A stretch of DNA of 62,271 bases, counting the filler. It is 6 parts of 6 records of this genome, joined end to end, with 100 filler letters (N's around TTAATTAATTAA, not from the genome) between each part and the next. Parts side by side here need not be neighbours in the genome. Positions count along the whole stretch, not along the records: positions 1 to 16,406 come from SRR33789315_7; 5 more parts are not named here. One strand, 5' to 3'. Below are positions 515-58,419 of the stretch, piece by piece (position 1 is the stretch's first letter; the number at the start of each line of letters is the position of its first letter). The translations under genes and the position numbers were made by a program. The notes beneath the pieces were generated by a model. That model had not been told where the DNA came from and did not search any database. It worked only from the letters and a program-made list of their open reading frames with translations.

Positions 515-1396
515 ATGAAAGGATGGGTGATTGTCTGTTTCTTTCTTATTTCCTGTAGCAATCGCAAGATTGAATCAGTCGTGGTAAGGGGTTCAGATAC
601 CGAGGTGAATTTAGTGCTGCAATTGGCAGAGACGTATATGAATGCCCACGATAACGTATCTGTCGCTGTCACGGGCGGTGGTTCGGGTACAGGAATTGCT
701 TCCTTACTCAACAAAAAAACGAATATTGCCAATTCTTCCCGCGCTTTTAATGATTACGAACTGGATCTTGCCAAGGAACGCGATGTAGATGTGCGACCCT
801 TTATTTTTGCCGTTGATGCCCTAACCTTTATCGCCAACAAAAACCTGAATGTTGATGCGCTTTCTCTGGATCAAATAAAAGATATCTATACGGGAAAATT
901 TACCAACTGGTCTGCCGTGGGCGGTCCTGATATGCCTATTTCCTTATACGGTCGTCAGGGCAATTCGGGCACATTTGTTTTTATTCAGGAAAATATTCTT
1001 AAAGGCGATTATTCCCAAAACATGAAACAGATGAACGGCACTTCACAAATAGTTGAAGGCATAAAAAACGATCCGGCAGGCATCGGGTATGTGGGTGTAG
1101 GATATCTTATAAATTCAGAAGGCAACTTGATTGACGGTATAAAGGTTATCAATCTCATCACCAAGGCGGGCAATCCGGCCGTTTCACCTTTGGTAAAAAC
1201 AAATATTCTCGATGGCACCTATCCAGTTGTGAGGCCGCTATATCAATATTTAGACGGAAAGCCTACCGGTAGTTTAAGGGACTTTTTACTTTTTGAAACC
1301 AGTCCTGAAGGACAAAAAATCATATCCGATTTTGGGTATTTCCAGATTACCGATGCACATTCAAAAATAAATATAACGACTCTAAGCAATGAATAG
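515..1396 (+). CDS. pstS: Phosphate ABC transporter substrate-binding lipoprotein
   Basis: Lipobox LISC; GSDT, GGGSGTGI, SSR, GRQGNSGT and YPVVRPLY motifs; first gene of the pst operon. Confidence 0.95.
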   Translation: MKGWVIVCFFLISCSNRKIESVVVRGSDTEVNLVLQLAETYMNAHDNVSVAVTGGGSGTGIASLLNKKTNIANSSRAFNDYELDLAKERDVDVRPFIFAVDALTFIANKNLNVDALSLDQIKDIYTGKFTNWSAVGGPDMPISLYGRQGNSGTFVFIQENILKGDYSQNMKQMNGTSQIVEGIKNDPAGIGYVGVGYLINSEGNLIDGIKVINLITKAGNPAVSPLVKTNILDGTYPVVRPLYQYLDGKPTGSLRDFLLFETSPEGQKIISDFGYFQITDAHSKINITTLSNE

Positions 1397-2264
1397 AATT
1401 CAGGTTAACAGCACCTTTAAAGTTATTTTTCGCCTAGCTGGATTTACTACAGTGCTGTTTTTATTCGGAATATTCTTGATGCTTTTCATCAATGCAGCCT
1501 TGGCATTTAAAGATATTAGTATTATCGAATTTTTCACCTCTTCGACTTGGATGCCCAGTGCCTATGAAAATCCACATTATGGCATTCTATCGCTGGTGGT
1601 AAGTTCGATACTCATTACCGCTCTCGCCATGCTCATCGCCATACCTATTGGTGTAGGTGCTGCCGCTTATCTGGCAGAATTTGCTCCCAAGCGCGTTGCT
1701 AATTTTGTAAAACCTGCGATTGAGATGCTTGCTGCCATACCTTCGGTAACGATCGGGTTTTTGGGAATTGTACTCGTAGGGCCGGCATTGTCACACCTAT
1801 TTGGAATCACCAACGGACTCAATGCCTTAAATGGAGCCATATTGCTGGGCGTAATGGCACTTCCTACCATTATTTCTATTTCTGAAGATGCCATGTATGC
1901 CGTTCCGCAAGCTTATAAAGAGGCTTCAACTGCTTTGGGATCTAACAAATGGGAAACCTTAATACATGTGGTTATTCCTGCTTCCTCTTCGGGAATTATC
2001 GCGGCCATCATGCTGGGTATGGGCAGGGTTATTGGTGAAACGATGGCGGTATTGATGGCTACCGGAAACGCTGCTGCTATGCCCAATAGTATTTTTAGTT
2101 CTGTACAGCCTTTAACGGCTACCATTGCCATAGAAATGGGTGAAGTACCTTATAATACACCTCATTATTATGCTTTGTATGCTCTTGGTCTTATCCTTTT
2201 TCTCATCACCTTGATTATTAATTTACTTACAGATAAACTGAGTGCTAAATTTCAAAGAAGATGA
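1389..2264 (+). CDS. pstC: Phosphate ABC transporter permease PstC
   Basis: ELLAAIPSV-like segment (EMLAAIPSV), EAS-ALG EAA loop, GRVIGETMAV; overlaps the pstS stop. Confidence 0.95.
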   Translation: MNRIQVNSTFKVIFRLAGFTTVLFLFGIFLMLFINAALAFKDISIIEFFTSSTWMPSAYENPHYGILSLVVSSILITALAMLIAIPIGVGAAAYLAEFAPKRVANFVKPAIEMLAAIPSVTIGFLGIVLVGPALSHLFGITNGLNALNGAILLGVMALPTIISISEDAMYAVPQAYKEASTALGSNKWETLIHVVIPASSSGIIAAIMLGMGRVIGETMAVLMATGNAAAMPNSIFSSVQPLTATIAIEMGEVPYNTPHYYALYALGLILFLITLIINLLTDKLSAKFQRR

Positions 2265-3112
2265 AAACAGCGAAGCGCATTACCTACAATCTGGGACTGG
2301 GATTCATCATCTTATGTACGTTGATTAGCCTTGCGGCGCTATTTATCGTCTTGTATGATATATTTGAAAAAGGACTGCCTAACCTCTCTTGGGATTTCAT
2401 TTTTCAAAATCCCAAGAACGGAATGACCGAAGGCGGTATCTGGCCGGCCGTTATGGGTACTATCCTCGTTACGCTCATTACCGCTATTTTTTCAATTCCG
2501 TTAGGTATTGCAGCTGCGATATATTTAAATGAATATGCCAGAAATAATTGGAGTACCCGCCTGATCAAAGCCTCGATACGCAATTTGGCCGGTGTTCCTT
2601 CCATCGTATTTGGATTATTTGGGGTTGCTCTTTTTGTGCAGGCTTTACATATGGGCACTTCCCTATTGGCTTCTGGATTTACGTTGGGCATTATGTCGCT
2701 ACCGTATATCATTACCGCAACCGAAGAAGCGCTTAAAACGGTTCCTGAGAGCATGAAAGAAGGTTCTATGGCATTGGGAGCAACCAAATGGGAAACCATT
2801 TATAAAGTCATTCTGCCTATGGCCGTTCCCGGAACGGTCACGGGTATCATTCTTGCCTTATCCCGAGCGGCTGGTGAGACGGCTCCCATCTTATTTACCG
2901 GCGTATTTTTTTACCAACGCTATTTACCTACTTCGGTATTAGATGAATTTATGGCACTGCCCTACCATCTGTTTATTCTCTCAACCCAACATCACGATAT
3001 AGAAGGCGTAAGGCCGCTTGCTTATAGTACGGCGTTAGTCTTGCTGTTGTTGGTATTTTCGATGAATCTGGTGGCTTTTTTTATTAGAGCCAAATACAGA
3101 AAACGCTTTTAG
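2261..3112 (+). CDS. pstA: Phosphate ABC transporter permease PstA
   Basis: NLAGVPSIVFGLFG, EGSMALGATKW, SRAAGETAP; ATGA overlap with pstC. Confidence 0.95.
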   Translation: MKTAKRITYNLGLGFIILCTLISLAALFIVLYDIFEKGLPNLSWDFIFQNPKNGMTEGGIWPAVMGTILVTLITAIFSIPLGIAAAIYLNEYARNNWSTRLIKASIRNLAGVPSIVFGLFGVALFVQALHMGTSLLASGFTLGIMSLPYIITATEEALKTVPESMKEGSMALGATKWETIYKVILPMAVPGTVTGIILALSRAAGETAPILFTGVFFYQRYLPTSVLDEFMALPYHLFILSTQHHDIEGVRPLAYSTALVLLLLVFSMNLVAFFIRAKYRKRF

Positions 3113-3131
3113 TTGTTTAAACGATATCCCT

Positions 3132-3884
3132 ATGTCTAAAATAAAGATTGAAAATATTTCGTTGTGGTTTGGTAAAAAGGAAGTGCTTAAAGACATCAGC
3201 CTTCATATACAACCCAACTCAATTACGGCCTTAATTGGGCCATCGGGGAGCGGAAAATCTACCTTATTGCGCTGCATCAACCGCATGCATGATCAGAATG
3301 ATGAAGTAAAGATTTCTGGTCATATTTTTAAGGATGAAAAGGATATATATGCGCCCGAGATAAATGTCAACGAAATACGTAGAGAGATCGGGATGGTGTT
3401 TCAGAAACCCAATCCCTTTCCTAAAACTATTTACAACAACATTGCCTACGGACTGAAAATAAACGGCATCAAAGACAAGAAAAACATTCAACAGAAGGTG
3501 GAAGAAAGTCTAAAAGACAGCTACCTCTGGGACGAAGTGAACGATTCGTTGAACAAATCGGCACTTTCCCTTTCTGGCGGACAACAACAGCGGCTTTGCA
3601 TCGCACGCTGCCTAGCTATCGAACCCGAGGTGATCCTGATGGACGAACCTACTTCGGCACTGGACCCTTTAGCCACTAAAGAAATTGAAAAGCTCATTCT
3701 TAAGCTAAAAAAAAAGTATACCATCATCATCGTTACTCATAATATGCAACAAGCACAACGCATTGCCGATAAAATCGCTATGCTTTATATGGGCAGCCTG
3801 ATTGAATATAGTGATACCAAAGAGTTCTTTGATAATCCGCAACATAAGCTCGCTAAGCAGTATGTAAAAGGAAAATTTGGATAA
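3132..3884 (+). CDS. pstB: Phosphate ABC transporter ATPase
   Basis: Walker A GPSGSGKS, GMVFQKPNPFPK, LSGGQQQRLCIAR, DEPTSALDP, YVKGKFG end. Confidence 0.97.
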   Translation: MSKIKIENISLWFGKKEVLKDISLHIQPNSITALIGPSGSGKSTLLRCINRMHDQNDEVKISGHIFKDEKDIYAPEINVNEIRREIGMVFQKPNPFPKTIYNNIAYGLKINGIKDKKNIQQKVEESLKDSYLWDEVNDSLNKSALSLSGGQQQRLCIARCLAIEPEVILMDEPTSALDPLATKEIEKLILKLKKKYTIIIVTHNMQQAQRIADKIAMLYMGSLIEYSDTKEFFDNPQHKLAKQYVKGKFG

Positions 3885-5831: not shown

Positions 5832-6767
5832 ATGAAAAAGCTATATTTAATTTCAATAATTATGATTTTTTTATTTACATCTTGTAGGTATGATATGGAT
5901 GATAGGGGTGATAGATTAGATACCAATAATCCAAATCAAGATACCATTAACAATCAATTTGTAACACAAGATGGGATAGTTTATTTCACGGGTTTGATTG
6001 AATGTTCAGGCACAGGGGAATATGGTTTTGACGAAAATAAGGTCCTAGATAGTCTAACTATTCCAGTTGATTTACCTGAAAATTTTGATTTGTCAGTCTT
6101 TTTACCACCTATTGGCAACCAAGGCAAACAAGGTTCTTGTACCTCATGGGCTACAACGTATTATCTAAAATCCTTACAGGAAAGAATAGAGTCTGGCGTG
6201 CCTTATGATTCTTCTAAGATTATGAGTCCTGCTTATACTTATAATCAAATAACCCAAGGGATTTGTGAAGGCACAACTTTTGAGAGTACAATAAATATTT
6301 TGAAAGAAAAAGGAACTACTTCAATTGAATCTTTTCCCTATTTTGATCATACCTGCACTATTCAACCTAGTCAAGCTCAGGATATAGAGGCTGAAACAAA
6401 TAGAGTAAGCGATTACAAGTACCTAAGCGGTGAAAATATGGTTCTAGAAATGAAAACTTTAATTAATGACCAGATGCCTATTTTAATCGCTACACTCTTA
6501 ACTTCTGAATTTGGCAAAAAGGATAATTTAGGCTTAACTTCATATAGAGAACATTTTATAGATTATAGCTTGCCTAGTGGTTGTCATGCCATGTTAGTTG
6601 TAGGTTATTCAGACCCGTATAATGCTTTTAAAGTTGTTAACTCCTGGGGAGAAGATTGGGGCGATGTGGGTTATGTGTGGATTGATTATGCTGCATTCAA
6701 CAATGTGTTAGACGAAACGGCTGAATTTAGAGTAATAAATAGTGCTATTATTGTATATGATTTATAG
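5832..6767 (+). CDS. Papain-like (C1) cysteine peptidase lipoprotein
   Basis: Lipobox FTSC; QGKQGSCTSW (catalytic Cys), GCHAMLVVGY (His), VNSWGEDWG (Asn). Confidence 0.9.
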   Translation: MKKLYLISIIMIFLFTSCRYDMDDRGDRLDTNNPNQDTINNQFVTQDGIVYFTGLIECSGTGEYGFDENKVLDSLTIPVDLPENFDLSVFLPPIGNQGKQGSCTSWATTYYLKSLQERIESGVPYDSSKIMSPAYTYNQITQGICEGTTFESTINILKEKGTTSIESFPYFDHTCTIQPSQAQDIEAETNRVSDYKYLSGENMVLEMKTLINDQMPILIATLLTSEFGKKDNLGLTSYREHFIDYSLPSGCHAMLVVGYSDPYNAFKVVNSWGEDWGDVGYVWIDYAAFNNVLDETAEFRVINSAIIVYDL

Positions 6768-7469
6768 TTATTACCCACTTAAAGCAAATTCTGCGGCGGC
6801 TCCCGTAAAATCAAAAATTAGGGTATAACTCTATTTCCTTTATAGCTTTTTCCTAAAATATTTTCCTTCATCGCCCTGATCTTGTCCAGTCCCAAATATT
6901 ATATATCCTACTGGTTCTATAGAGAAACTCATCTTTAAACCTTAACCTTAATAGAAATATATCTTTCCATAAAATACTCTGTACTAAATTATGAAGTATC
7001 CTACCCTTAATCTGTTCTTTGTTCTTTCTGATTTTTACTTACTATCCATTTAAAGAGAATCAACCTTGAGACGTGTAATTAAATGCTTTAGTATAGCTAT
7101 TCACTAAAGTATTTTAAACCGCTCTAAAATGTCATATGTAGAGCAGTCAAATCAAACATGACTTGCAGTATTAAACAAGTATTTAAGATTTTCTCTCCCC
7201 CTTAAAAATTAACTTCTTTAAAAACAAAAATTATAAGTTTTTAGTTAATAGTATATTAACTAAAAATACCCATTAATGGGTATTGCATCGCTGGTTTTTT
7301 ACTTTTACTTTTAAACAGCTAAAATTCAACAAGTTAATAAAATTGAATATGATGCAATTAAAAGTACAATTAAGAACAGCCTTAAAATACGTAGTACTTA
7401 ACATGCCATTTTGGGCATAAATGTGTGTATTGATTGCGCATATAAACAAGTTAGCAAACATTAAAATAA

Positions 7470-7901
7470 ATGTCGAAAAAAAATTCTATTTTAAATTGTC
7501 CAAGATGCTTAGGTAAAGGTTTTGTTAACGAGTCAGATATTCTTAGACTAGACAGGTATGTTGAATGGGTTGCAGGCCTTTGTGGTTATTGTGAAGGTTT
7601 AGGAAAGATAAACCCTGAGGAATTTAAAACCACAGAAGTTAACGATATTTATCTATCTTCTGATTTAACAAGAGAGGAAAGAAAGCAATATTTAAATAAA
7701 AACAAAAATGCACTTGAAAGAGCTGCCCAATATCAAATTGATCTAGATATAACTAAAAGTTTAGTGATAAAGTTCCATTTCAAAGAGAAAAAAACTATTG
7801 AAGAAATTCTTGAAATATTTCAATTACCAAAAGAAATTGGTGATTCAAGTAGAGAAAATTTTAAGGCTTTCATATCTAGAGTGATAAGTAAAAGCACATA
7901 A
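7470..7901 (+). CDS. Hypothetical protein with DnaJ-type zinc-finger motifs (cassette 1)
   Basis: CPRCLGKG and CGYCEGLG (CxxCxGxG x2); starts 20 nt after the GTT crossover site. Confidence 0.7.
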   Translation: MSKKNSILNCPRCLGKGFVNESDILRLDRYVEWVAGLCGYCEGLGKINPEEFKTTEVNDIYLSSDLTREERKQYLNKNKNALERAAQYQIDLDITKSLVIKFHFKEKKTIEEILEIFQLPKEIGDSSRENFKAFISRVISKST

Positions 7902-7910
7902 AATCTGATT

Positions 7911-8915
7911 ATGCAGTATTCTAATAAAAGATATGCAATAGTAAACAAAGTAACTCCTGAAATAGCTTTATATTTTGATGGTGTTTTTTGCTTAGATGGC
8001 AGTACAAAAAGTGTTTTCCCAACAGGGAATAATTTTTATTTACCAGAAATTGGAAGAGAAGTTCCAAACTTAACATTGGATACAAATAAAACTGCAGGAA
8101 TAGATAATTGGATTTTCAAGAAAGTCATTTCCATACAGGCTGCACATCTTTTCAACATACACTTTTCTGGCAAAGCAAGAATTGATATTGATAAAGTAGC
8201 AGATTACGTTCAAATTCGAAAACTACAATATTTCAGTGACTTCAAAGAGGTTATAATTAATGAATCAATTGAATATTCAGACGATGATATAATTTTTTAT
8301 TTCAAAAATTTTCTGATAATGGCCACAACAAACATATTTAGAAAAACTGGAAGATATATTACACCAGTATTCCAAGACTTTAATAATAAAGAATGGTTTA
8401 ATTCTAGCAACTTCACTACACCAAATCTTCAAAATGGAATAGAACTGTCATTGTTGAATTTATCAATTATTGACAGCAACAAACTAGAATGGTTACACGT
8501 GAAGGAGGTCAGAGAAGATGTTGAATCGATAAAAAAGCTTAGAAATCTTCGTCTTTTCCTAGAAGATATCGATAGTTCAAAAGGGCAAGATTATGTTGAG
8601 GATATTATTCTGCAAAAAATTGAAAGCTATGAAATAGCCGCAAAAAAACACGGTTTTAACCTAAAAAAAGATATTATTAATGCTTTTTTAGACCTTGAAC
8701 ACATTCCAAATATTATAGCATTAACAGTTTTATCTATTTTTAATCAATCAATAGCTCCAGCAGCAGCCGTAATTGGGTTAACAGAAATCATTGGTGCTGC
8801 AAAAGAAATTGGGAAAACCACAGTAGAAATAAAAAATAAAAATATTTCTAAAGGACTGGATCCAAGTCATCAAGACGTAGAGTATTTAATGAGTATAAAG
8901 GAAAAATTAGAATAA
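7911..8915 (+). CDS. Hypothetical protein (cassette 1, second gene)
   Basis: 334-aa AT-rich ORF 9 nt after the previous stop; hydrophobic C-terminal segment; the stop abuts an attC-like site. Confidence 0.7.
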   Translation: MQYSNKRYAIVNKVTPEIALYFDGVFCLDGSTKSVFPTGNNFYLPEIGREVPNLTLDTNKTAGIDNWIFKKVISIQAAHLFNIHFSGKARIDIDKVADYVQIRKLQYFSDFKEVIINESIEYSDDDIIFYFKNFLIMATTNIFRKTGRYITPVFQDFNNKEWFNSSNFTTPNLQNGIELSLLNLSIIDSNKLEWLHVKEVREDVESIKKLRNLRLFLEDIDSSKGQDYVEDIILQKIESYEIAAKKHGFNLKKDIINAFLDLEHIPNIIALTVLSIFNQSIAPAAAVIGLTEIIGAAKEIGKTTVEIKNKNISKGLDPSHQDVEYLMSIKEKLE

Positions 8916-9321: not shown

Positions 9322-10995
9322 ATGAGAAAATCAAAAACAACAAACGGACTCACAGTTAATGCTATTGCTGGCTCCTATGCCGTTATCCTAGGTTTCGATA
9401 TGGAACCGAACAACTGTGAGGGATTACTAGGGTTTTCAATTCACAGGACAGATCATTCTGAAAACGAATCATATTATATGAAGGGTGTGAAAACCTTTGA
9501 GGAGACAGACCCTCAATTTCCATCAGGTTCACAATATTCGACTAAAGACCACCCTTGGCAGAGTTTTCAGTGGGCAGACTATTCTGCAAAGCCCGGACAA
9601 GTTTACACTTATACTATTTCGGCATTAAAAGGAAAGCCGACAAAATTGATCCCGTTTGCAACAACCACGATAAAAGTTACAACGGAAACAGAAGAAAATG
9701 AAGTTCACAATGTCTATTTCAACAGAGGCATATCAGCCGTTCAAGAATATGTTCGAAGATTTGGTAATGAAAAGCCCGCAGAGGATGATGCACCTGATAG
9801 TCCAAAATTTAAATGGCTATCTAGAGGACTTTATGAGGCCCTGGAAGATTTCGTTGGTTCATGTATACCAGGCAGACACAGCTTGAGAATTTCAGCTTAT
9901 GAATTCAATTATCGTCCATTTCTCAGACTTTTAAAGAGTTGTATTGAAAATGGGGTTGACATTAAAATTATTTATGATGCCAGAAAAGATTCGCCTAAAA
10001 TTAAAAATGAAGAAAGGATAATTGAATGTGGGTTAGAAGATTACTGCTTTCCACGTAAAGAAGGTAAATCATACATATCTCACAATAAGTTCATTATTAA
10101 ACTTGAAAATGACACACCAATTAGTGTTTGGACTGGCGGAACAAATTTTTCAGTTGGAGGAATCTTTGGTCATTCAAATGTAGCACATGTAATTAGAGAA
10201 GAAAAAACTGCTATGAAATTTATGGAATATTGGAACGAATTAAGTCAAGATAAGAAGACAGCAGTTATTAAAAATGATGTAGAAAGAATATCACCTACAC
10301 CATTTATCCCAATAATGATTGGAGAACAATGTGTTTTTAGTCCAAGAAAGAATCTGGATGCATTGAATTTATACAGTGACTTAGCCTTATCAGCTAAAAA
10401 TGGATTATTTATAACGTTTGCGTTTGGCATAAACGACCTATTTAAAAATGTTTACCAAAATAGTAATGCCACTCTAAGGTTTGCCCTTTTAGAAAAGAAA
10501 ACACGACCAATGAAAAAAGACTCACCTGAAAGAAAGGCAGAAGAGGATGCTATTGACCAACTAAGATTTAAAGCTGAAAATATTTTTGCAATTGGTGACT
10601 TTATAAAGACAAATAAATTTGACGGTTGGGTTAAAGAGACACTTTCAGGTTTAAATCACAATGTACAGTACGTTCACAATAAATTTATGCTGATTGATCC
10701 ATTGAGTGTAAATCCTATTGTAATTACAGGTTCAGCAAATTTCAGTGAAGCTTCTACTACTAAAAATGATGAGAACATGGTAATTATTTGTGGAGATACA
10801 AGAGTTGCTGATATTTATTTAGGAGAATACATGAGATTATGGAATCATCATGCCTTTAGAGAATTTCTCAATAAATCAAATAATATAATTGCTGGATTTA
10901 AACCCAATCATCTTAGAACAGATGATTGGTGGAGGGATTACTATAAAAACAACGATAAGGCAGCAAGAAGAAAATATTTTTCAAATACCAAATAA
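9322..10995 (+). CDS. Phospholipase D-superfamily (Nuc-like) protein with two HKD-type motifs
   Basis: SHNKFIIK..VWTGGTNFS and VHNKFMLID..ITGSANFS..NDEN; N-terminal beta-rich region (WADYSAKPGQVYTYTI). Confidence 0.85.
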   Translation: MRKSKTTNGLTVNAIAGSYAVILGFDMEPNNCEGLLGFSIHRTDHSENESYYMKGVKTFEETDPQFPSGSQYSTKDHPWQSFQWADYSAKPGQVYTYTISALKGKPTKLIPFATTTIKVTTETEENEVHNVYFNRGISAVQEYVRRFGNEKPAEDDAPDSPKFKWLSRGLYEALEDFVGSCIPGRHSLRISAYEFNYRPFLRLLKSCIENGVDIKIIYDARKDSPKIKNEERIIECGLEDYCFPRKEGKSYISHNKFIIKLENDTPISVWTGGTNFSVGGIFGHSNVAHVIREEKTAMKFMEYWNELSQDKKTAVIKNDVERISPTPFIPIMIGEQCVFSPRKNLDALNLYSDLALSAKNGLFITFAFGINDLFKNVYQNSNATLRFALLEKKTRPMKKDSPERKAEEDAIDQLRFKAENIFAIGDFIKTNKFDGWVKETLSGLNHNVQYVHNKFMLIDPLSVNPIVITGSANFSEASTTKNDENMVIICGDTRVADIYLGEYMRLWNHHAFREFLNKSNNIIAGFKPNHLRTDDWWRDYYKNNDKAARRKYFSNTK

Positions 10996-11002
10996 AGGAC
11001 AC

Positions 11003-11353
11003 ATGAGAACAACTAAAGAAGTTTGGGAGCATCATTGCATCGCTTTTGCTAATGCAAATATTGATGATTTAATGTTTGATTTTGCAGATGATGCAATCTA
11101 TGTAACAACAAATAATGTTATTAAAGGCAAAGACAACATTCGTAAACAATATGATAACCACTTTAAATCCCTCGAAACAGGTTCAACATCAAAAATAATC
11201 AGTGAGACTATTGAGGGTGAAATAGTATTCTTTGAATGGACTGCCGATACACCTTCAATCTATATCCATGATGGTGTTGATACTTTCGTAATTAGAAATG
11301 GTTTTATTGTTGCACAAACTGTAAGAGGAACAGTAATTAGCAAAGCAAAATAA
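11003..11353 (+). CDS. SnoaL/NTF2-like protein
   Basis: Likely start is ATG 11003 (7 nt after the PLD stop) rather than 10889; HH..AF..ANIDDLM.DFADDA, DGVDTFVIRNG.IVAQT. Confidence 0.8.
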   Translation: MRTTKEVWEHHCIAFANANIDDLMFDFADDAIYVTTNNVIKGKDNIRKQYDNHFKSLETGSTSKIISETIEGEIVFFEWTADTPSIYIHDGVDTFVIRNGFIVAQTVRGTVISKAK

Positions 11354-11365
11354 TATTTTAAAATT

Positions 11366-13879
11366 ATGCATAAAAACATTCTTTCTTTTTGGCAACATTT
11401 AGAGTCTTTGCCTAAAGGTCATTCCGACAGATTAACTCCAAGAGTATGCACACTTTTGCAAGATACTTTTGAAAAATGGCATTCTAAACCCAAGTGGGTA
11501 GGCTTTGCTGAAATGGGTCATTTATTTGACTATTATAAAAATGAGGAGCTATCTAAGATCAAGTCTCTTTCAGTAGCTGAAAGGAAAGGATTAGCTGTAA
11601 AAAAACTATTTGAATTTATTTCAGACCCAATTAATAGAGAATCTAAAGGGGCAATGGAAATTAATCCTATGGAATTAATTGTTGGTACACTTCCACCATA
11701 TTCAGTTGGTCAAGGAAAAGAGCTTATTAGATATTTAACTGAGGATGAAAGACTTTATTGGGAATTAAGATATTATAATGAGTGGTCGCCTTTTGGTCAC
11801 ATAGTACCAGATCACGATATAATTTTAAAAAAGGGAATTTTAGGGATAATTACGGACTGCCAAGAAAAACTAAATCACTTAATACCTAATCAGTTAAAGC
11901 AGAAACAATTCTACCAATCAGTTATCAATTCTTTAGAAGGGGTGCTATTTTATATAAATGCCTATTCAGACTTCATTTTAGAATATTCTAATTCATTTCA
12001 TCCAAATGATGAAAGGGCGATTAATCTTAAATCTATCTCTGAAAGATTACGAGAATACCCTGCAAAACCTTCTGAAACATTTACAGATGCTTTGCAGTCG
12101 ATTCATATCATGCATTGTGCCCTTCATTGGTCGGGCGAAATTGTGCCAATTGGTCGCCTTGACCAATTGCTCAATGAATTTTATGTTAAAGATTTGGAGA
12201 AAGGCATCATTACTAAAGAAAAGGCACAGGAGACTCTTGATTGCTTTTGGATTAAACTAGACGAAAAGGTTGTACACAACAGAAGATTTATCGAAGACAG
12301 ATTTACTTCGTCAGATGGTGCTTTACTAGGCACAGGTGGTCCCAGTAATTTCGACCAAGGGGCATTGGTTAATCAGTGGATGCAACAGGTAACTATTGGA
12401 GGAGTAATTGCTAATAATAACGATGAAGCAACAGATGCAGTAAATGAAATCACATTTATGTGTATGGATTCAGCAAGGCGATTACCTCTAAATAGCCCAA
12501 CGCTTGATTTAAGAGTTCATGCAAAAAGTGATAGTAAATTATTTGAAGCTGCCGCAAAAACTATTTTAAGTGGTGGTGCTCACCCCATCTTAATGAATGA
12601 TGATAAAATTATTCCTGCATTACAGCATAAAACCGGAGGTTATGTCGAACTTAAAAGTGCAAGAAACTATGCATGTGACGGCTGTTACGAAACACTATTC
12701 GCAGGTGAAACTGAGTTTAGTTTTGGATTTGTTGGAGCGCTTGATGTTTTGGAAAAGACTCTGAACAGTGGAGCTGGATTTGCCTTCTCAGGTAGTACAT
12801 TTTTGAGGGGAAGCAAGGCTAGTTTACGAACCAAACAAGCTAAAGACCTTTCCACATTTGATGAATTCTGGTCGATATTTGAACAGCATCTTTTACTCGG
12901 CTGTCACAAATTTTTACACGGGATTCTTTCTGCTTATGGAAGTAAAGAGAATGTTTCCCCTTCTCCATTATTATCAGCAATGATTAATGGCTGTATTGAT
13001 ACTGGAAGAGATTTAGCTGGCGGTGGTTCAAGATACCATCTATTTTCACCTTTAATGACAGGAATCAGCACAGCAACAGATTCATTATACGTAATTAAGA
13101 AACTAGTATTTAATGACAACCTATTTTCACTTGAGGAATTGGTTTCATGTTTGAGAACAAATTGGGGAAGAAACAAAGAAGTAGTAGGTCTTAAAATATC
13201 TGATGAAAGGATAAATGATATTAGAAATCTGTGTATAAGTCAACCTAAATTCGGTCAGGGACATAAATATGTTGATGAACTTGCTTACGAATTAATCAAC
13301 TCATTTTACGATTCACTTCAAATAGCGAGAAAAGATAAAGTGCATGAAGAAAATTGGAAGCGACTTCAAAATCAATACGACATAGATGGACGTAAATTTG
13401 AAATTTTAATTGCTCCAGGTGTAGGCACTTTTGAGCAGTACAATTTTTCAGGCTCTTTTGTCGGGGCAACTCCAGACGGAAGATACGCCTTTGATTCTAT
13501 TGCTTCGGATTTATCCCCTTCTCCTTATCATTCAGATCAATCAATTCCTCAAGTCCCAGCAATAAAATTTATAGATGGATTGGAAAGTTATTCCGATTAC
13601 TCCATAAATCTGCTTTCCGATGGTGCACCGCCTGATTTTAATATCAAAGAAGACTTTGATGAGGTTGCTTTAACCAAAATAATAAAAGCCTTTGCTGAAG
13701 GTCATGGAGGCAATATGCTTACTATAACAGTAAGTGATCCTGAATCTTTTAAAAATGCCCAAGATAATCCAGATGATTACAATTTGCTCAGAGTAAGGAT
13801 GGGAGGATGGACAGAGTTTTTTATTTCATTGTTTCCAGCCCTACAAGAACAGCATAAAAGAAGGCCATTGTTTAAATAA
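11366..13879 (+). CDS. Glycyl radical enzyme (PFL2/diol dehydratase-like superfamily) with divergent Gly loop
   Basis: ELIVG, GHIVPD, GRLDQ, QQVTIGG, Cys loop YACDGCYE, GATPDGR, C-terminal AQDNPDDYNLLRVRMGGWTEFF (canonical RVxG[YF]). Confidence 0.9.
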   Translation: MHKNILSFWQHLESLPKGHSDRLTPRVCTLLQDTFEKWHSKPKWVGFAEMGHLFDYYKNEELSKIKSLSVAERKGLAVKKLFEFISDPINRESKGAMEINPMELIVGTLPPYSVGQGKELIRYLTEDERLYWELRYYNEWSPFGHIVPDHDIILKKGILGIITDCQEKLNHLIPNQLKQKQFYQSVINSLEGVLFYINAYSDFILEYSNSFHPNDERAINLKSISERLREYPAKPSETFTDALQSIHIMHCALHWSGEIVPIGRLDQLLNEFYVKDLEKGIITKEKAQETLDCFWIKLDEKVVHNRRFIEDRFTSSDGALLGTGGPSNFDQGALVNQWMQQVTIGGVIANNNDEATDAVNEITFMCMDSARRLPLNSPTLDLRVHAKSDSKLFEAAAKTILSGGAHPILMNDDKIIPALQHKTGGYVELKSARNYACDGCYETLFAGETEFSFGFVGALDVLEKTLNSGAGFAFSGSTFLRGSKASLRTKQAKDLSTFDEFWSIFEQHLLLGCHKFLHGILSAYGSKENVSPSPLLSAMINGCIDTGRDLAGGGSRYHLFSPLMTGISTATDSLYVIKKLVFNDNLFSLEELVSCLRTNWGRNKEVVGLKISDERINDIRNLCISQPKFGQGHKYVDELAYELINSFYDSLQIARKDKVHEENWKRLQNQYDIDGRKFEILIAPGVGTFEQYNFSGSFVGATPDGRYAFDSIASDLSPSPYHSDQSIPQVPAIKFIDGLESYSDYSINLLSDGAPPDFNIKEDFDEVALTKIIKAFAEGHGGNMLTITVSDPESFKNAQDNPDDYNLLRVRMGGWTEFFISLFPALQEQHKRRPLFK

Positions 13880-13888
13880 TATTATATC

Positions 13889-15871
13889 ATGGAAAAAAAG
13901 ACATACATACCAAGACCGCTTCCAATATTAGATAGTCCTTATCAAAGTGGTATTTCTGATCCCCAGTTTCCTTTGCTTCCTTCTACTTTTGAATTGGAGA
14001 ATGATAAAGACTATGAATTGTTCCGCGGTCGTGTAGATAAACAAGGTTATGCAGCAATTTTGAAGGCAAACATTGCAACTAAAAATAAATTAGAGCTAAA
14101 AATTTTACTTCAATTATTATCAGATTTAGCCTACTATGAAATGACTCGAACACCGCAATCTGATAAAAAAGAAGATTTGGCAAGAATTCCAGATTCATTG
14201 GCGCAAATACCTGAATCTTGGCGAGTGTCATTCACCATTGCGTTCGGCCATTCTCTATTTGTTGATAAATTTGGTAATGATAGATTTGGTTTAAGTTTTA
14301 GAAAACCCAAAAACTTAAAAATTATTCCAAAATTTCCTGGTGACGAATTTGACCCATTAAATTCAGTTTCTGACATATTGATATTAGTCGCTAGCGATCA
14401 TCCTTATGTTAACCTAGCAATTACCAGAACCCTTGCCGAATATGTAAACAAGAAATTTGCAGCTAAACAAAATAAAAACAAAGTAGAGAATGTTTTTCAA
14501 GTTATAAGTGTTCAACAAGGATTTGGTCGTCCCGATTCGAAGGAGTTTTTAAAGTTTAATGACGGAATAGACAATCTTAGAGCAAATATCGACTTAGAAA
14601 AATTAGTTTATGTTGATGAAAATTGTAATGAACCTGAATGGTGTATTGGAGGTTCGTACTTGGTTTATAAAAAGATTAGAGAAATGATGCCAGTTTGGGA
14701 GGCATTTTCAAAATCAACCCAAGAAGGTATTATCGGCAGAGAAAAAGCTAGTAGCTTACCACTTTCTAATAATAAAGAAGGGATAAATAACTTAACACCT
14801 GTTTATCCTGACCCCACAGACCCTAAAGATGGTCCATTAAATGCACACATCAGAAAGGTACAACCAAGGAGACCTAATCCTGACTTATTTGGTGAAAATG
14901 ATTTGAATAGAAGATTTTTAAGAAGACCATATCCATTTTTTGATGGAGTTGATGAAAATGGAAAGTCAATCAATGGTCTTCATTTCATTGCATTTATGAA
15001 AAGTATTCAAAATCAATTTGAGCATGTAACGAATATGTGGCAAATGAATCCAAATTTTCCAATTGAAGGTACTGGCATTGACGCTTTATATGCGAAAGAA
15101 GTTTTAAAAAGTATAGATGGAGGTTACTATTTCTGTCCACCTGCGAGAAAAACAAAAGATGATTTCATTGGGTCTGGGTTGTTTGAAGAATATGTAAAAG
15201 CTCCTTACAAAATTCCACAACATATTTATGGCTATGGGATAACATTTGTTGATATTGACGAAACAATTTTCAATACTATCGCTACTATCAAAGTAATAAA
15301 AGGAGGTATTGTAATAAAATCATTAGACAATAAAGAGTTTAATGATTACAATTTGCAAGAGGGCGAATCTTATGATTTTGGCGAGTTCAGAGATTCAGAA
15401 ACCTTTCTAAACACATCCAAACCCATAGTTTCAATAGTTTCCGAGATAAAAAAAATACTAAATATAATTTCTTCTAATTCAGAAGGGAGCAGGATTGTAT
15501 TTCTAACTGCACGAAGTGATTTTGATAACAAGGAAAGGTTTTTAAATACTTTTCGAAAGTATGGTATAGACATAGATTCTTCTAGAATGTATGTTGAAAG
15601 ATCAGGAAATCTCCAGACAGGAACTGTTGCTGAAAAAAAGAAGAAAATCGTATTGGAGTACTTGAAGGATGGTAAATATAGAAGGGTTAGACTAATTGAT
15701 GATAATCAAGTCAATCTTGATGAATTCCTAACTATTAAAAGGTCATTAGATTCGGGCATTATTGAACTAATCAAAAAAAATCATTTTTTGGATGACTTAA
15801 CCGATCCAATTGAATTCTATGCTTATCATGTAAACCATGAAGGAGAAATGAAATTGATAGGAAAAGAATAA
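13889..15871 (+). CDS. DyP-type heme peroxidase fused to C-terminal HAD-superfamily phosphatase
   Basis: DyP: FNDGIDN (distal Asp), GGSYLVYKKI, AHIRKVQPR (proximal His), RRPYPF (distal Arg), GLHFIAF, GGYYFCPP. HAD: FVDIDETIF, LTARSD, KKK, LIDDN. Confidence 0.85.
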   Translation: MEKKTYIPRPLPILDSPYQSGISDPQFPLLPSTFELENDKDYELFRGRVDKQGYAAILKANIATKNKLELKILLQLLSDLAYYEMTRTPQSDKKEDLARIPDSLAQIPESWRVSFTIAFGHSLFVDKFGNDRFGLSFRKPKNLKIIPKFPGDEFDPLNSVSDILILVASDHPYVNLAITRTLAEYVNKKFAAKQNKNKVENVFQVISVQQGFGRPDSKEFLKFNDGIDNLRANIDLEKLVYVDENCNEPEWCIGGSYLVYKKIREMMPVWEAFSKSTQEGIIGREKASSLPLSNNKEGINNLTPVYPDPTDPKDGPLNAHIRKVQPRRPNPDLFGENDLNRRFLRRPYPFFDGVDENGKSINGLHFIAFMKSIQNQFEHVTNMWQMNPNFPIEGTGIDALYAKEVLKSIDGGYYFCPPARKTKDDFIGSGLFEEYVKAPYKIPQHIYGYGITFVDIDETIFNTIATIKVIKGGIVIKSLDNKEFNDYNLQEGESYDFGEFRDSETFLNTSKPIVSIVSEIKKILNIISSNSEGSRIVFLTARSDFDNKERFLNTFRKYGIDIDSSRMYVERSGNLQTGTVAEKKKKIVLEYLKDGKYRRVRLIDDNQVNLDEFLTIKRSLDSGIIELIKKNHFLDDLTDPIEFYAYHVNHEGEMKLIGKE

Positions 15872-16300: not shown

Positions 16301-16406
16301 TTCAGCTAAAGCTGACCAAAGTTGCTACACAACTACGTTGTTCCCGCCCCTTTGGTTATGTGCTCCAACGCCCCGCTATACCAAATCACATATAACTTTC
16401 TCTATA

Positions 16407-16506
16407 NNNNNNNNNNNNNNNNNNNNNNNNNNNNNNNNNNNNNNNNNNNNTTAATTAATTAANNNNNNNNNNNNNNNNNNNNNNNNNNNNNNNNNNNNNN
16501 NNNNNN
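16407..16506. other. Artificial contig linker
   Basis: 44 N + TTAATTAATTAA (stop codons in all six frames) + 44 N. Confidence 0.98.
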
Positions 16507-46129: not shown

Positions 46130-46229
46130 NNNNNNNNNNNNNNNNNNNNNNNNNNNNNNNNNNNNNNNNNNNNTTAATTAATTAANNNNNNNNNNNNNNN
46201 NNNNNNNNNNNNNNNNNNNNNNNNNNNNN
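46130..46229. other. Artificial contig linker
   Basis: N44-TTAATTAATTAA-N44. Confidence 0.98.
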
Positions 46230-48815: not shown

Positions 48816-48915
48816 NNNNNNNNNNNNNNNNNNNNNNNNNNNNNNNNNNNNNNNNNNNNTTAATTAATTAANNNNNNNNNNNNNNNNNNNNNNNNNNNNN
48901 NNNNNNNNNNNNNNN
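48816..48915. other. Artificial contig linker
   Basis: N44-TTAATTAATTAA-N44. Confidence 0.98.
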
Positions 48916-52541: not shown

Positions 52542-52641
52542 NNNNNNNNNNNNNNNNNNNNNNNNNNNNNNNNNNNNNNNNNNNNTTAATTAATTAANNN
52601 NNNNNNNNNNNNNNNNNNNNNNNNNNNNNNNNNNNNNNNNN
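52542..52641. other. Artificial contig linker
   Basis: N44-TTAATTAATTAA-N44. Confidence 0.98.
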
Positions 52642-58319: not shown

Positions 58320-58419
58320 NNNNNNNNNNNNNNNNNNNNNNNNNNNNNNNNNNNNNNNNNNNNTTAATTAATTAANNNNNNNNNNNNNNNNNNNNNNNNN
58401 NNNNNNNNNNNNNNNNNNN
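58320..58419. other. Artificial contig linker
   Basis: N44-TTAATTAATTAA-N44. Confidence 0.98.

Follow-up and report, generated by a model that had tools for sequence, protein, structure and literature searches.

A glycyl radical enzyme homologue and its DyP-type peroxidase partner: a candidate peroxide-driven radical enzyme in a four-gene bacterial cassette

To our knowledge, all glycyl radical enzymes (GREs) characterised so far need a radical SAM activase and strict anoxia, and this dependence limits the presumed occurrence and use of GRE chemistry. The window analysed here, a stretch of 62,271 nucleotides made of six joined contigs, carries on its first contig a four-gene cassette encoding a PLD-superfamily protein, a small SnoaL-like protein, a GRE homologue of the PFL type and a fusion of a DyP-type haem peroxidase with a HAD domain. 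This locus raises the question of how a GRE homologue could obtain a radical when the partner beside it is a haem peroxidase and not an activase. We consider, with a probability of about 0.45, that aerobic bacteria possess a two-component radical enzyme, widespread but rare, of which the cassette is one form, and that this enzyme is peroxide-driven and SAM-independent and acts on a small molecule derived from nucleotides. A clade found in aerobes in which the radical residues are kept, the activase is lost and a haem peroxidase is always present would offer a testable second route to a protein glycyl or thiyl radical, a candidate for oxygen-compatible GRE chemistry and a physiological partner for DyP peroxidases, for which few natural roles have been established.

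The GRE homologue and its peroxidase partner

The neighbours of GRE homologues were tabulated, as the first-pass annotation of the window had recommended, in a six-frame scan with purpose-built profiles of 87 clade loci (the window, five genome contigs, L015 and 80 metagenome contigs). A DyP accompanies the GRE in 79/79 readable loci (26 split and 53 fused, eight further loci being unreadable) and an activase in 0/87. In the 30 split loci the GRE has 835-925 amino acids, with identities of at least 46%, and in all 26 loci with a readable downstream region the gene that follows in the same orientation encodes the DyP, the other four ending at a contig edge. Two apparent exceptions to the split pairing, L052 and L054, were rejected as artefacts of the pruning of open reading frames (ORFs) in high-GC DNA. 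Within the fused group (57 loci, 33-40% identical) the N-terminal DyP domain is complete in 50 members, two members are truncated at the 5' end and retain a DyP remnant, one has a stop (L088) and four are unreadable, and both the Dyp_perox_C and the PFL-like domain of Pfam were found in 23/23 fused proteins sampled. At L088 (2-3925) a single in-frame stop separates the DyP part from the PFL part, and could be a pseudogene mutation, a sequencing error or a recent split. The conserved core is the GRE-DyP pair and not the four-gene set, which had been described as a self-contained cassette: among the split loci SnoaL is present in 5/30, the DyP-HAD fusion in 8/30 and the PLD gene in 18/30.

The pairing follows the phylogeny of the GREs. 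In a maximum-likelihood tree of 99 rows, from which eight rows with short GRE parts and the duplicate L014 were omitted, the 82 DyP-linked rows all group in a single clade (SH-aLRT 97), which a long branch (1.8) separates from the other GREs, the split (25) and fused (57) forms are sister subclades, and 17 activase-linked GREs from Bacteroidota fall outside. No DyP was found in the 20 canonical GRE loci examined, the flanks of which are short. The family is rare, with 2/401 Bacteroidota and 2/401 Pseudomonadota genomes sampled, each count including the genome that seeded the search. A protein collection yielded 477 relatives of the GRE, the named ones coming from Flavobacterium, Pedobacter, Puia, Psychroserpens, Aureisphaera, Pyrinomonadaceae, other Acidobacteriota, Lacipirellula and one eukaryotic transcript, and in the Protein Atlas only generic GRE clusters were retrieved.

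The peroxidases of the two subclades belong to different classes. For the DyP domain of the window the Pfam scores are 87.3 (Dyp_perox_C) and 34.5 (Dyp_perox_N), both against cut-offs of about 20, and NCBIfam TIGR01413 gives 157.2 against a cut-off of 100.5. Alignment with EfeB places the distal Asp at D225 (FNDGID), the proximal His at H320 (AHIR) and the distal Arg at R345 (LRRP), and the fold matches EfeB (24rq) with a Z score of 36.4 and DtpAa with 35.4, compared with about 27-28 for class B members; by sequence, the split-form DyP matches EfeB at 3e-29. The model for EfeB, the Tat-exported deferrochelatase-peroxidase (TIGR01412), is not reached by the window DyP (151 bits vs 428), and inspection by eye of its N-terminus, MEKKTYIPRPLPIL, revealed no twin-arginine signal. 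The DyP domains of the fused proteins resemble class B/P, with DypB, YfeX and encapsulin DyPs as their matches, and EfeB is not in their match list. Since an EfeB/DtpA-like class serves the split subclade and a DypB/YfeX-like class the fused one, the requirement seems to be for any DyP as such. The haem-site residues are retained in both: proximal His, distal Arg and distal Asp in 21/21 split DyPs each, proximal His and distal Arg in 36/36 fused DyPs each, with a distal acid that is Asp in 16/36 and Glu in 20/36 of the latter. In these 20 proteins the distal Asp of GxxDG is replaced by Glu at the column of residue 146 of the fused protein L109 (RFSENLNNP).

The AlphaFold2 (AF2) model of this fused member (L109, 8963-12478) has a predicted template modelling score (pTM) of 0.88, compared with 0.68 for the loosely linked DyP-HAD protein of the window, which suggests a fixed DyP-GRE arrangement, pTM being the model's own confidence and not a measurement. 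Residues 630-661 and 1145-1155 of the same model (Gly loop and clade-specific insertion near the active site) have a per-residue confidence (pLDDT) below 50. A complex prediction for residues 248-837 of the window GRE and residues 30-436 of the DyP scored 0.00, with alignments unused and an arbitrary cut through the barrel, and speaks neither for nor against a complex.

The GRE homologue itself has the barrel and the catalytic loops of its superfamily. Its PF02901 match (Table 1) and 31 solved GREs retrieved at E <= 1e-5 by phmmer against the PDB, the best relatives being CutC (9f3w, 1e-52) and glycerol dehydratase (1r8w), identify the PFL-like ten-stranded barrel domain. The initial claim that the Cys loop and the Gly loop are kept is borne out by alignment to the catalytic loops of solved GREs, in which phmmer pairs 'cdgcye' with 'lmgcve' and 'rvrmggwteff' with 'rvagysayfv'. 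On this basis G814 is the putative radical glycine, C440 the putative thiyl cysteine and E442 the putative general base. H145 aligns with His164 of glycerol dehydratase and with the Asp of the CutC GGGD motif, and by alignment the combination of H145, C440 and E442 is the make-up of a 1,2-eliminase. The positions H281, S282 and D447 of glycerol dehydratase, which we take to contact the substrate, correspond to E258, I259 and S452 in the window GRE, and because these equivalents differ the substrate is probably neither glycerol nor propanediol. Two further features were rejected: the C-terminal RRP tail is not specific to DyP-linked members, as it equals the canonical [RK]RT motif, and C437, which would form a CxxC-like redox pair in CDGC, is not conserved (AADGCYE in 16 members).

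It is unlikely, in our judgement, that the PFL-like protein works without radical chemistry, whether by binding the substrate or serving as a scaffold for the peroxidase or by non-radical Cys/Glu catalysis, with the Gly loop being structural. Such a role would agree with a Gly_radical Pfam match under its cut-off (19.3 vs 22.2), with a TIGR01774 score of 264 bits against a cut-off of 678.2 and equivalog models (CutC, HypD, HpsG and others) all far under theirs, as well as with the aerobic hosts, the low-confidence Gly loop of the fused model and the branch length of 1.8. Nevertheless, DGC[YF]E is kept in 87/87 clade members and VR[MT]GGW in 84/87, the remaining three being cut by contig ends, and the residues corresponding to G814, C440, E442 and H145 persist across sequences just 33-40% identical, which is unexpected for a scaffold.

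The search for an activase and the proposed role of the DyP

A profile hidden Markov model built from 17 activases adjoining canonical GREs detected an activase in 19/20 canonical GRE loci and in 0/87 DyP-linked loci, the top score in the latter being 16 bits (E 0.002). One credible radical SAM gene lies within 10 kb of a clade GRE, and it encodes a YhhB-type peptide maturase (L050). The motif CxxxCxxC is absent from all frames of at least 100 amino acids in the entire window; the earlier remark that the cassette contig has no radical SAM gene is therefore true, but weak alone as this contig has 16.4 kb. The search was extended to six host genomes (Pedobacter psychrodurus, two Rheinheimera, a Porticoccaceae metagenome-assembled genome (MAG), G263 and G757), where the cut-offs of TIGR02494 (174 bits) and TIGR02493 (232 bits) were reached in 0/6, with best scores of 37 and 59 bits, respectively; as controls, 3/14 reference genomes passed. 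The best of the weak matches in the hosts are MoaA, QueE, RnfB, BoxA and an AmmeMemoRadiSam enzyme, each above its own cut-off. NrdD is absent from 5/5 host genomes tested, and exactly one PFL-like gene is present per genome in 4/4 tested.

The first-pass annotation had suggested that the DyP either replaces the activase or protects the radical. The retained Gly, Cys and Glu of the GRE homologue, the constant DyP and the lack of an activase in loci and genomes speak for the part of the suggestion that couples the two proteins, with radical transfer between them as a hypothesis, and the data fit replacement of the activase better than protection. A DyP acting as a bodyguard, which removes H2O2 or organic peroxides for the benefit of a sensitive GRE that receives its radical from a conventional or unrecognised activase elsewhere, is in our view very improbable. 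This idea was proposed for the DyP-PFL fusions, there named subclass P2, as a hypothesis in which the DyP shields PFL and its activase from H2O2 (PMC9719856, 2022). It would also be in line with a putative PFL activase reported in a fusion-carrying fungus and with the induction of the fused gene of the aerobic fungus Chaetomium cochliodes 3-fold by H2O2 and 18.5-fold by peracetic acid (PMC5041501). Against it stand the bacterial genomes and loci, with an activase above cut-off in 0/6 and 0/87, respectively, and NrdD in 0/5 hosts; general scavenging would require neither a strict 1:1 adjacency or fusion throughout the clade nor two DyP classes, and the 20 canonical GRE loci, although with short flanks, were found without a DyP.

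Returning to the DyP as the radical initiator of the GRE, a role that we hold tentatively and at less than even odds, we hypothesize that H2O2 would convert the DyP to Compound I, and that the oxidising equivalent would reach the GRE subunit by hole hopping via Tyr and Trp residues. A protein radical, on G814 and then on C440, would in this way be created or renewed without a radical SAM enzyme. Class I ribonucleotide reductase would provide the parallel, as its catalytic barrel, of the same fold, is served by a distinct subunit that generates the radical. The next step would be a Cys/Glu-dependent 1,2-elimination by the GRE, as in a dehydratase or lyase, with a small hydroxylated compound as substrate. 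The chemistry invoked for the peroxidase has precedents, since DyPs make Tyr/Trp radicals of about 1 V by hole hopping (PMC10646903) and the class I DyP DtpA is required to mature the radical copper oxidase GlxA (PMC4736821; PMC8197335). The peroxide induction of the fused fungal gene (PMC5041501) is a further published observation in line with such a role. If the DyP does initiate the radical, this would be a categorically new mode of GRE activation.

The tryptophan that follows the glycine had been pointed out as a possible DyP-linked feature and did not hold as such, given that the nearest activase-dependent relative (L016) has RVGGW too. At L116 (G182:C74, 3186-15763) the operon of the nearest activase-dependent relative includes genes for a radical SAM activase, a HAD hydrolase, a patatin/DUF3376 phospholipase of 1163 amino acids, a sigma-54 activator and an Fe-alcohol dehydrogenase. 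From the L016/L116 setting, with a HAD hydrolase and a patatin-like phospholipase, a lipid head-group may be the substrate.

The cassette, its accessory genes and the possible substrate

The window contigs are joined by N44-TTAATTAATTAA-N44 linkers and the gene order across the joins is artificial; because the cassette contig (16,406 nt) ends at 16406 with such a linker, genes past 16507 are not neighbours of the cassette, which stops 535 nt before the contig end. The description of four co-oriented genes with gaps of 7, 12 and 9 nt agrees with the ORF listing and with the junction sequences, which read TAA-AGGACAC-ATG between PLD and SnoaL (7 nt), TAA-TATTTTAAAATT-ATG between SnoaL and GRE (12 nt) and TAA-TATTATATC-ATG between GRE and DyP-HAD (9 nt). 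The coordinates are collected in Table 1.

Table 1. Features of the cassette and of the joins in the window.
Feature	Position	Strand	Evidence or remark
PLD-superfamily phosphodiesterase, nuclease-like, 557 aa	9322..10995	+	PLDc_2 3.5e-19, 69.4 vs cut-off 27
SnoaL/NTF2-like small protein, 116 aa from ATG	11003..11353	+	SnoaL_2 31.7 bits vs 27
PFL-like GRE homologue, 837 aa, DyP-linked clade	11366..13879	+	PF02901 3e-109, 366.9 vs 24.3
FGHIV loop, H145	11792..11806	+	H145 invariant in 18/18 sequences
Cys loop DGCYE, aa 438-442	12677..12691	+	aligns to GCVE of CutC, glycerol dehydratase
Gly loop RMGGW, aa 811-815	13796..13810	+	aligns to RVAGY of CutC, glycerol dehydratase
DyP-HAD fusion protein, 660 aa	13889..15871	+	
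DyP-type haem peroxidase domain, aa 1-438, class A/I (EfeB/DtpA-like)	13889..15202	+	
HAD phosphatase domain fused to DyP, aa 447-660	15227..15871	+	
Artificial contig linkers N44-TTAATTAATTAA-N44	16407-16506, 46130-46229, 48816-48915, 52542-52641, 58320-58419		

The cassette contig also carries, about 5.4 kb upstream of the four genes, a pstSCAB-like phosphate ABC transporter (515-3884) composed of a PBP_like_2 protein, two permeases and an ATPase, and the setting may be one of phosphate scavenging. Three genes occupy 5832-8915, between the transporter region and the cassette, and encode a papain-family peptidase of 311 amino acids, a protein of 143 amino acids with a DnaJ-like CxxCxGxG zinc motif and a protein of 334 amino acids assigned to no family; none of the three has relatives among the other loci collected.

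The PLD protein has two HKD-type motifs, HNKFIIK..GGTNFS at residues 254-277, with K at the D position, and the canonical HNKFMLID..GSANFS at residues 452-475, as well as an extra N-terminal domain of about 130 residues and no signal peptide. Its closest solved structures are the Nuc endonuclease (1byr, 6e-9), which is the nearest, MitoPLD/Zucchini and NucT, and a Nuc-like nuclease activity is predicted from profile and motifs. The longest form of the SnoaL ORF starts at TTG 10889. The HAD domain carries the motifs DIDET (I), LTARS (II), a K run at 582-586 (III) and IDDN (IV), with a weak Pfam match to Acid_phosphat_B (PF03767, 17.2, under the cut-off of 27). In the AF2 model of the DyP-HAD protein (pLDDT 86.9, pTM 0.68) the best fold match of model residues 447-650 is the T4 Pnkp 3'-phosphatase (5uj0_B; Z 12.6, root-mean-square deviation 2.6, 133 aligned), followed by Pnkp1 (4xrp, Z 12.3), T4 PNK (1ltq, Z 12.1), AphA (Z 10.9) and other HADs (at most 10.8), so that motifs and modelled fold confirm the HAD identity. 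Stand-alone relatives of this domain number 495, of about 225 amino acids each.

The accessory genes of the other split loci vary around a common theme. SnoaL is found in the matching position at L001, L002, L036 and L038; L002 has a trypsin-EndoNS nuclease in the accessory place; S1/P1 nucleases occur at L003, L050 and L072, L003 having in addition an EEP enzyme, a 5'-nucleotidase and an amidohydrolase; further 5'-nucleotidases at L041, L042 and L059 bring the number of loci with this enzyme to four; and L102 has a cytidine deaminase of 590 amino acids. In eight loci a protein of about 400 amino acids with a VOC/glyoxalase C-terminus is encoded directly upstream of the GRE. The label 'HAD' for the module fused to VOC rests on DxDxN/DDD motifs and on the NCBI annotation of a Hymenobacter copy. 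Homology of the two HAD-like modules was not shown, as hhalign of the window HAD domain with the HAD-VOC proteins gave a probability of 0.7%, and phmmer against the PDB returned only chance matches for the window HAD domain and for the HAD-like N-terminal part of one VOC protein. The neighbours and the Pnkp-like HAD fold support the nucleotide or phosphoester substrate suggested in the first pass. On our proposal, the substrate would come from the breakdown of nucleic acids or nucleotides, with the PLD and the Pnkp-like 3'-phosphatase as suppliers, and SnoaL, or VOC in other loci, would handle a reactive carbonyl product.

The nuclease, phosphatase and deaminase make-up would also suit an anti-phage or inter-microbial conflict module that destroys nucleic acids or nucleotides, or makes a toxic nucleoside derivative, with GRE-DyP as the effector. 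Copies are found on a plasmid, beside type IV secretion system genes (L043), and near Ppl, Septu, a type IV restriction enzyme, a retron-type PRTase and STAND/NACHT NTPases, which lie close to some split cassettes, and the distribution is rare and patchy, with 2/401 genomes in each of two phyla. We nevertheless regard this role as quite improbable, and the anti-phage function proposed earlier found no support. PADLOC 2.0 gave no match to any defence family for the GRE, DyP-HAD and SnoaL proteins, and for the PLD a weak match to the DrmC domain (3e-7). Enrichment in defence islands was considered and rejected, since the rates of PADLOC matches among neighbours are similar in split loci (12/92 ORFs, 8/22 loci) and in the fused control (10/108 ORFs, 6/16 loci), and among 2.9 million viral contigs a single locus was found, of the fused type. 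The secreted nucleases and nucleotidases of several loci point to scavenging instead, and the phosphate transporter on the cassette contig also speaks against a conflict module.

The plasmid copy, from Hymenobacter, is annotated as PFL (GRE), DyP, PLD-like, HAD-like hydrolase and VOC. This copy (L124, Hymenobacter cellulosilyticus plasmid NZ_CP095048, 9088-15998) looks decayed, with the PFL annotated in two pieces, a short DyP and the HAD-VOC module as three small coding sequences. Genes for trypsin-like peptidases are a repeated feature next to split cassettes, frequently accompanied by a STAND or other NTPase and in one case fused to an EndoNS nuclease (L002 4854-9605; L043 13877-14878; L046 16463-18769; L049 14195-16597; L124 1932-8256). 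In plasmids of Ralstonia solanacearum and Asticcacaulis (L125 8467-9198; L126 2362-3432) the gene for the DyP-PFL fusion has a DUF2278 gene as neighbour, and in the Asticcacaulis plasmid it also adjoins a SUMF1/EgtB-like gene.

A more specific form of the peroxide-driven proposal, which we advance as possible though rather doubtful, is that of a GRE homologue whose glycyl/thiyl radical is initiated by the haem peroxidase and which works in air, the split form dehydrating a ribonucleoside or nucleotide as in the first half-reaction of ribonucleotide reductase. For the substrate chemistry we infer an unstable 3'-keto-deoxy product that would shed base and phosphate, with SnoaL or VOC dealing with the enone and HAD and PLD feeding the substrate. 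If true, the pair would be a PFL-family counterpart of class I ribonucleotide reductase, in which DyP and H2O2 replace the radical SAM activase; if the idea fails, the family would still be a conserved enzyme pair, spread by horizontal transfer and linked to the breakdown of nucleic acids, that calls for an explanation.

Several observations weigh against the reading of the pair as a peroxide-driven radical enzyme. In the presence of air a glycyl radical normally undergoes cleavage by O2, and how this would be avoided is unexplained; both the GRE radical and the electron transfer from DyP to GRE are hypothetical, and the cassette encodes no source of H2O2. The activase-dependent L016 already has DGCWE and RVGGW, and hence no sequence feature marks an adaptation to DyP; the Gly loop of the fused model has a pLDDT below 50, several of the host genomes are drafts or MAGs, and the putative activase of the fusion-carrying fungus also counts here. 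As for the substrate, the argument draws on variable neighbours. Signal peptides are present on the secreted-type accessory enzymes, namely the nucleases and nucleotidases of L003, L041, L042, L050, L059 and L072, and on none of the GRE, DyP and PLD proteins, and the fused genes have no conserved neighbours, no family being common to more than 4/52 loci.

Relation to known systems

The combination, thought at first to be undescribed, has in part been recorded before. DyP-PFL fusions were listed in 2016 as hypothetical proteins the significance of which 'remains elusive', with horizontal transfer of the fusion gene between proteobacteria and ascomycetes (PMC5041501), and they reappear in 2022 (PMC9719856); a 2021 review of DyPs (PMC8197335) does not mention PFL. 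Our literature searches, with subscription journals and supplements outside their scope, retrieved neither a characterised DyP-GRE pair nor a suggestion that a DyP acts as activator. As far as we have seen, the apparently new elements are the split operon and its class A/I DyP, the systematic lack of an activase, the two DyP classes for two subclades, the nucleic-acid-type accessory genes and the Pnkp-like HAD domain.

The closest known relatives are the 'DyP B-PFL' fusions of Chaetomium and proteobacteria (subclass P2), the PFL part of which is sister clade to the window GRE and shares with it the loops DGC[YF]E and R[MT]GGW, the DyP partner and an uncharacterised function. They differ in being one chain with a class B/P DyP, whereas the window has two genes 9 nt apart and a class A/I DyP with a C-terminal HAD domain, and the split form has nuclease and phosphatase neighbours not seen beside the fusions. 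The canonical 1,2-eliminase GREs (CutC, B12-independent glycerol dehydratase, HypD and IslA), which are the top PDB sequence matches of the window GRE (1e-52 to 1e-40), have in common with it the barrel, the Gly loop, GCxE and the His at the His164 position; in contrast to them, the DyP-linked clade has no activase and aerobic hosts, and the window GRE misses the NCBIfam subfamily cut-off (264 vs 678).

For the peroxidase, the DtpA-GlxA system of Streptomyces lividans offers a likeness, as there a class A/I DyP with H2O2 activates a partner radical enzyme (PMC4736821; PMC8197335). However, GlxA is an extracellular copper radical oxidase and DtpA a Tat substrate said to oxidise Cu+ (PMC8197335), whereas in the window neither the GRE nor the DyP has a signal peptide and the DyP is paired with a GRE homologue. 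The window HAD shares fold and DxDxT motif set with the T4 Pnkp 3'-phosphatase and AphA; unlike T4 Pnkp, it has no kinase domain, is fused to a peroxidase and stays under the PF03767 cut-off.

Class I ribonucleotide reductase has the barrel, a thiyl cysteine on the finger loop and a glutamate base, and takes its radical over a long distance from a separate, air-tolerant metallo-subunit; its radical generator is a di-metal/Tyr protein that uses O2, and the Gly loop is not kept. The likeness to the cassette is conceptual only, the pair being proposed to use a haem peroxidase and H2O2. Taken together, these comparisons place the cassette within the GRE superfamily as an uncharacterised variant, one that has another obligate partner and that is known to exist without being understood.

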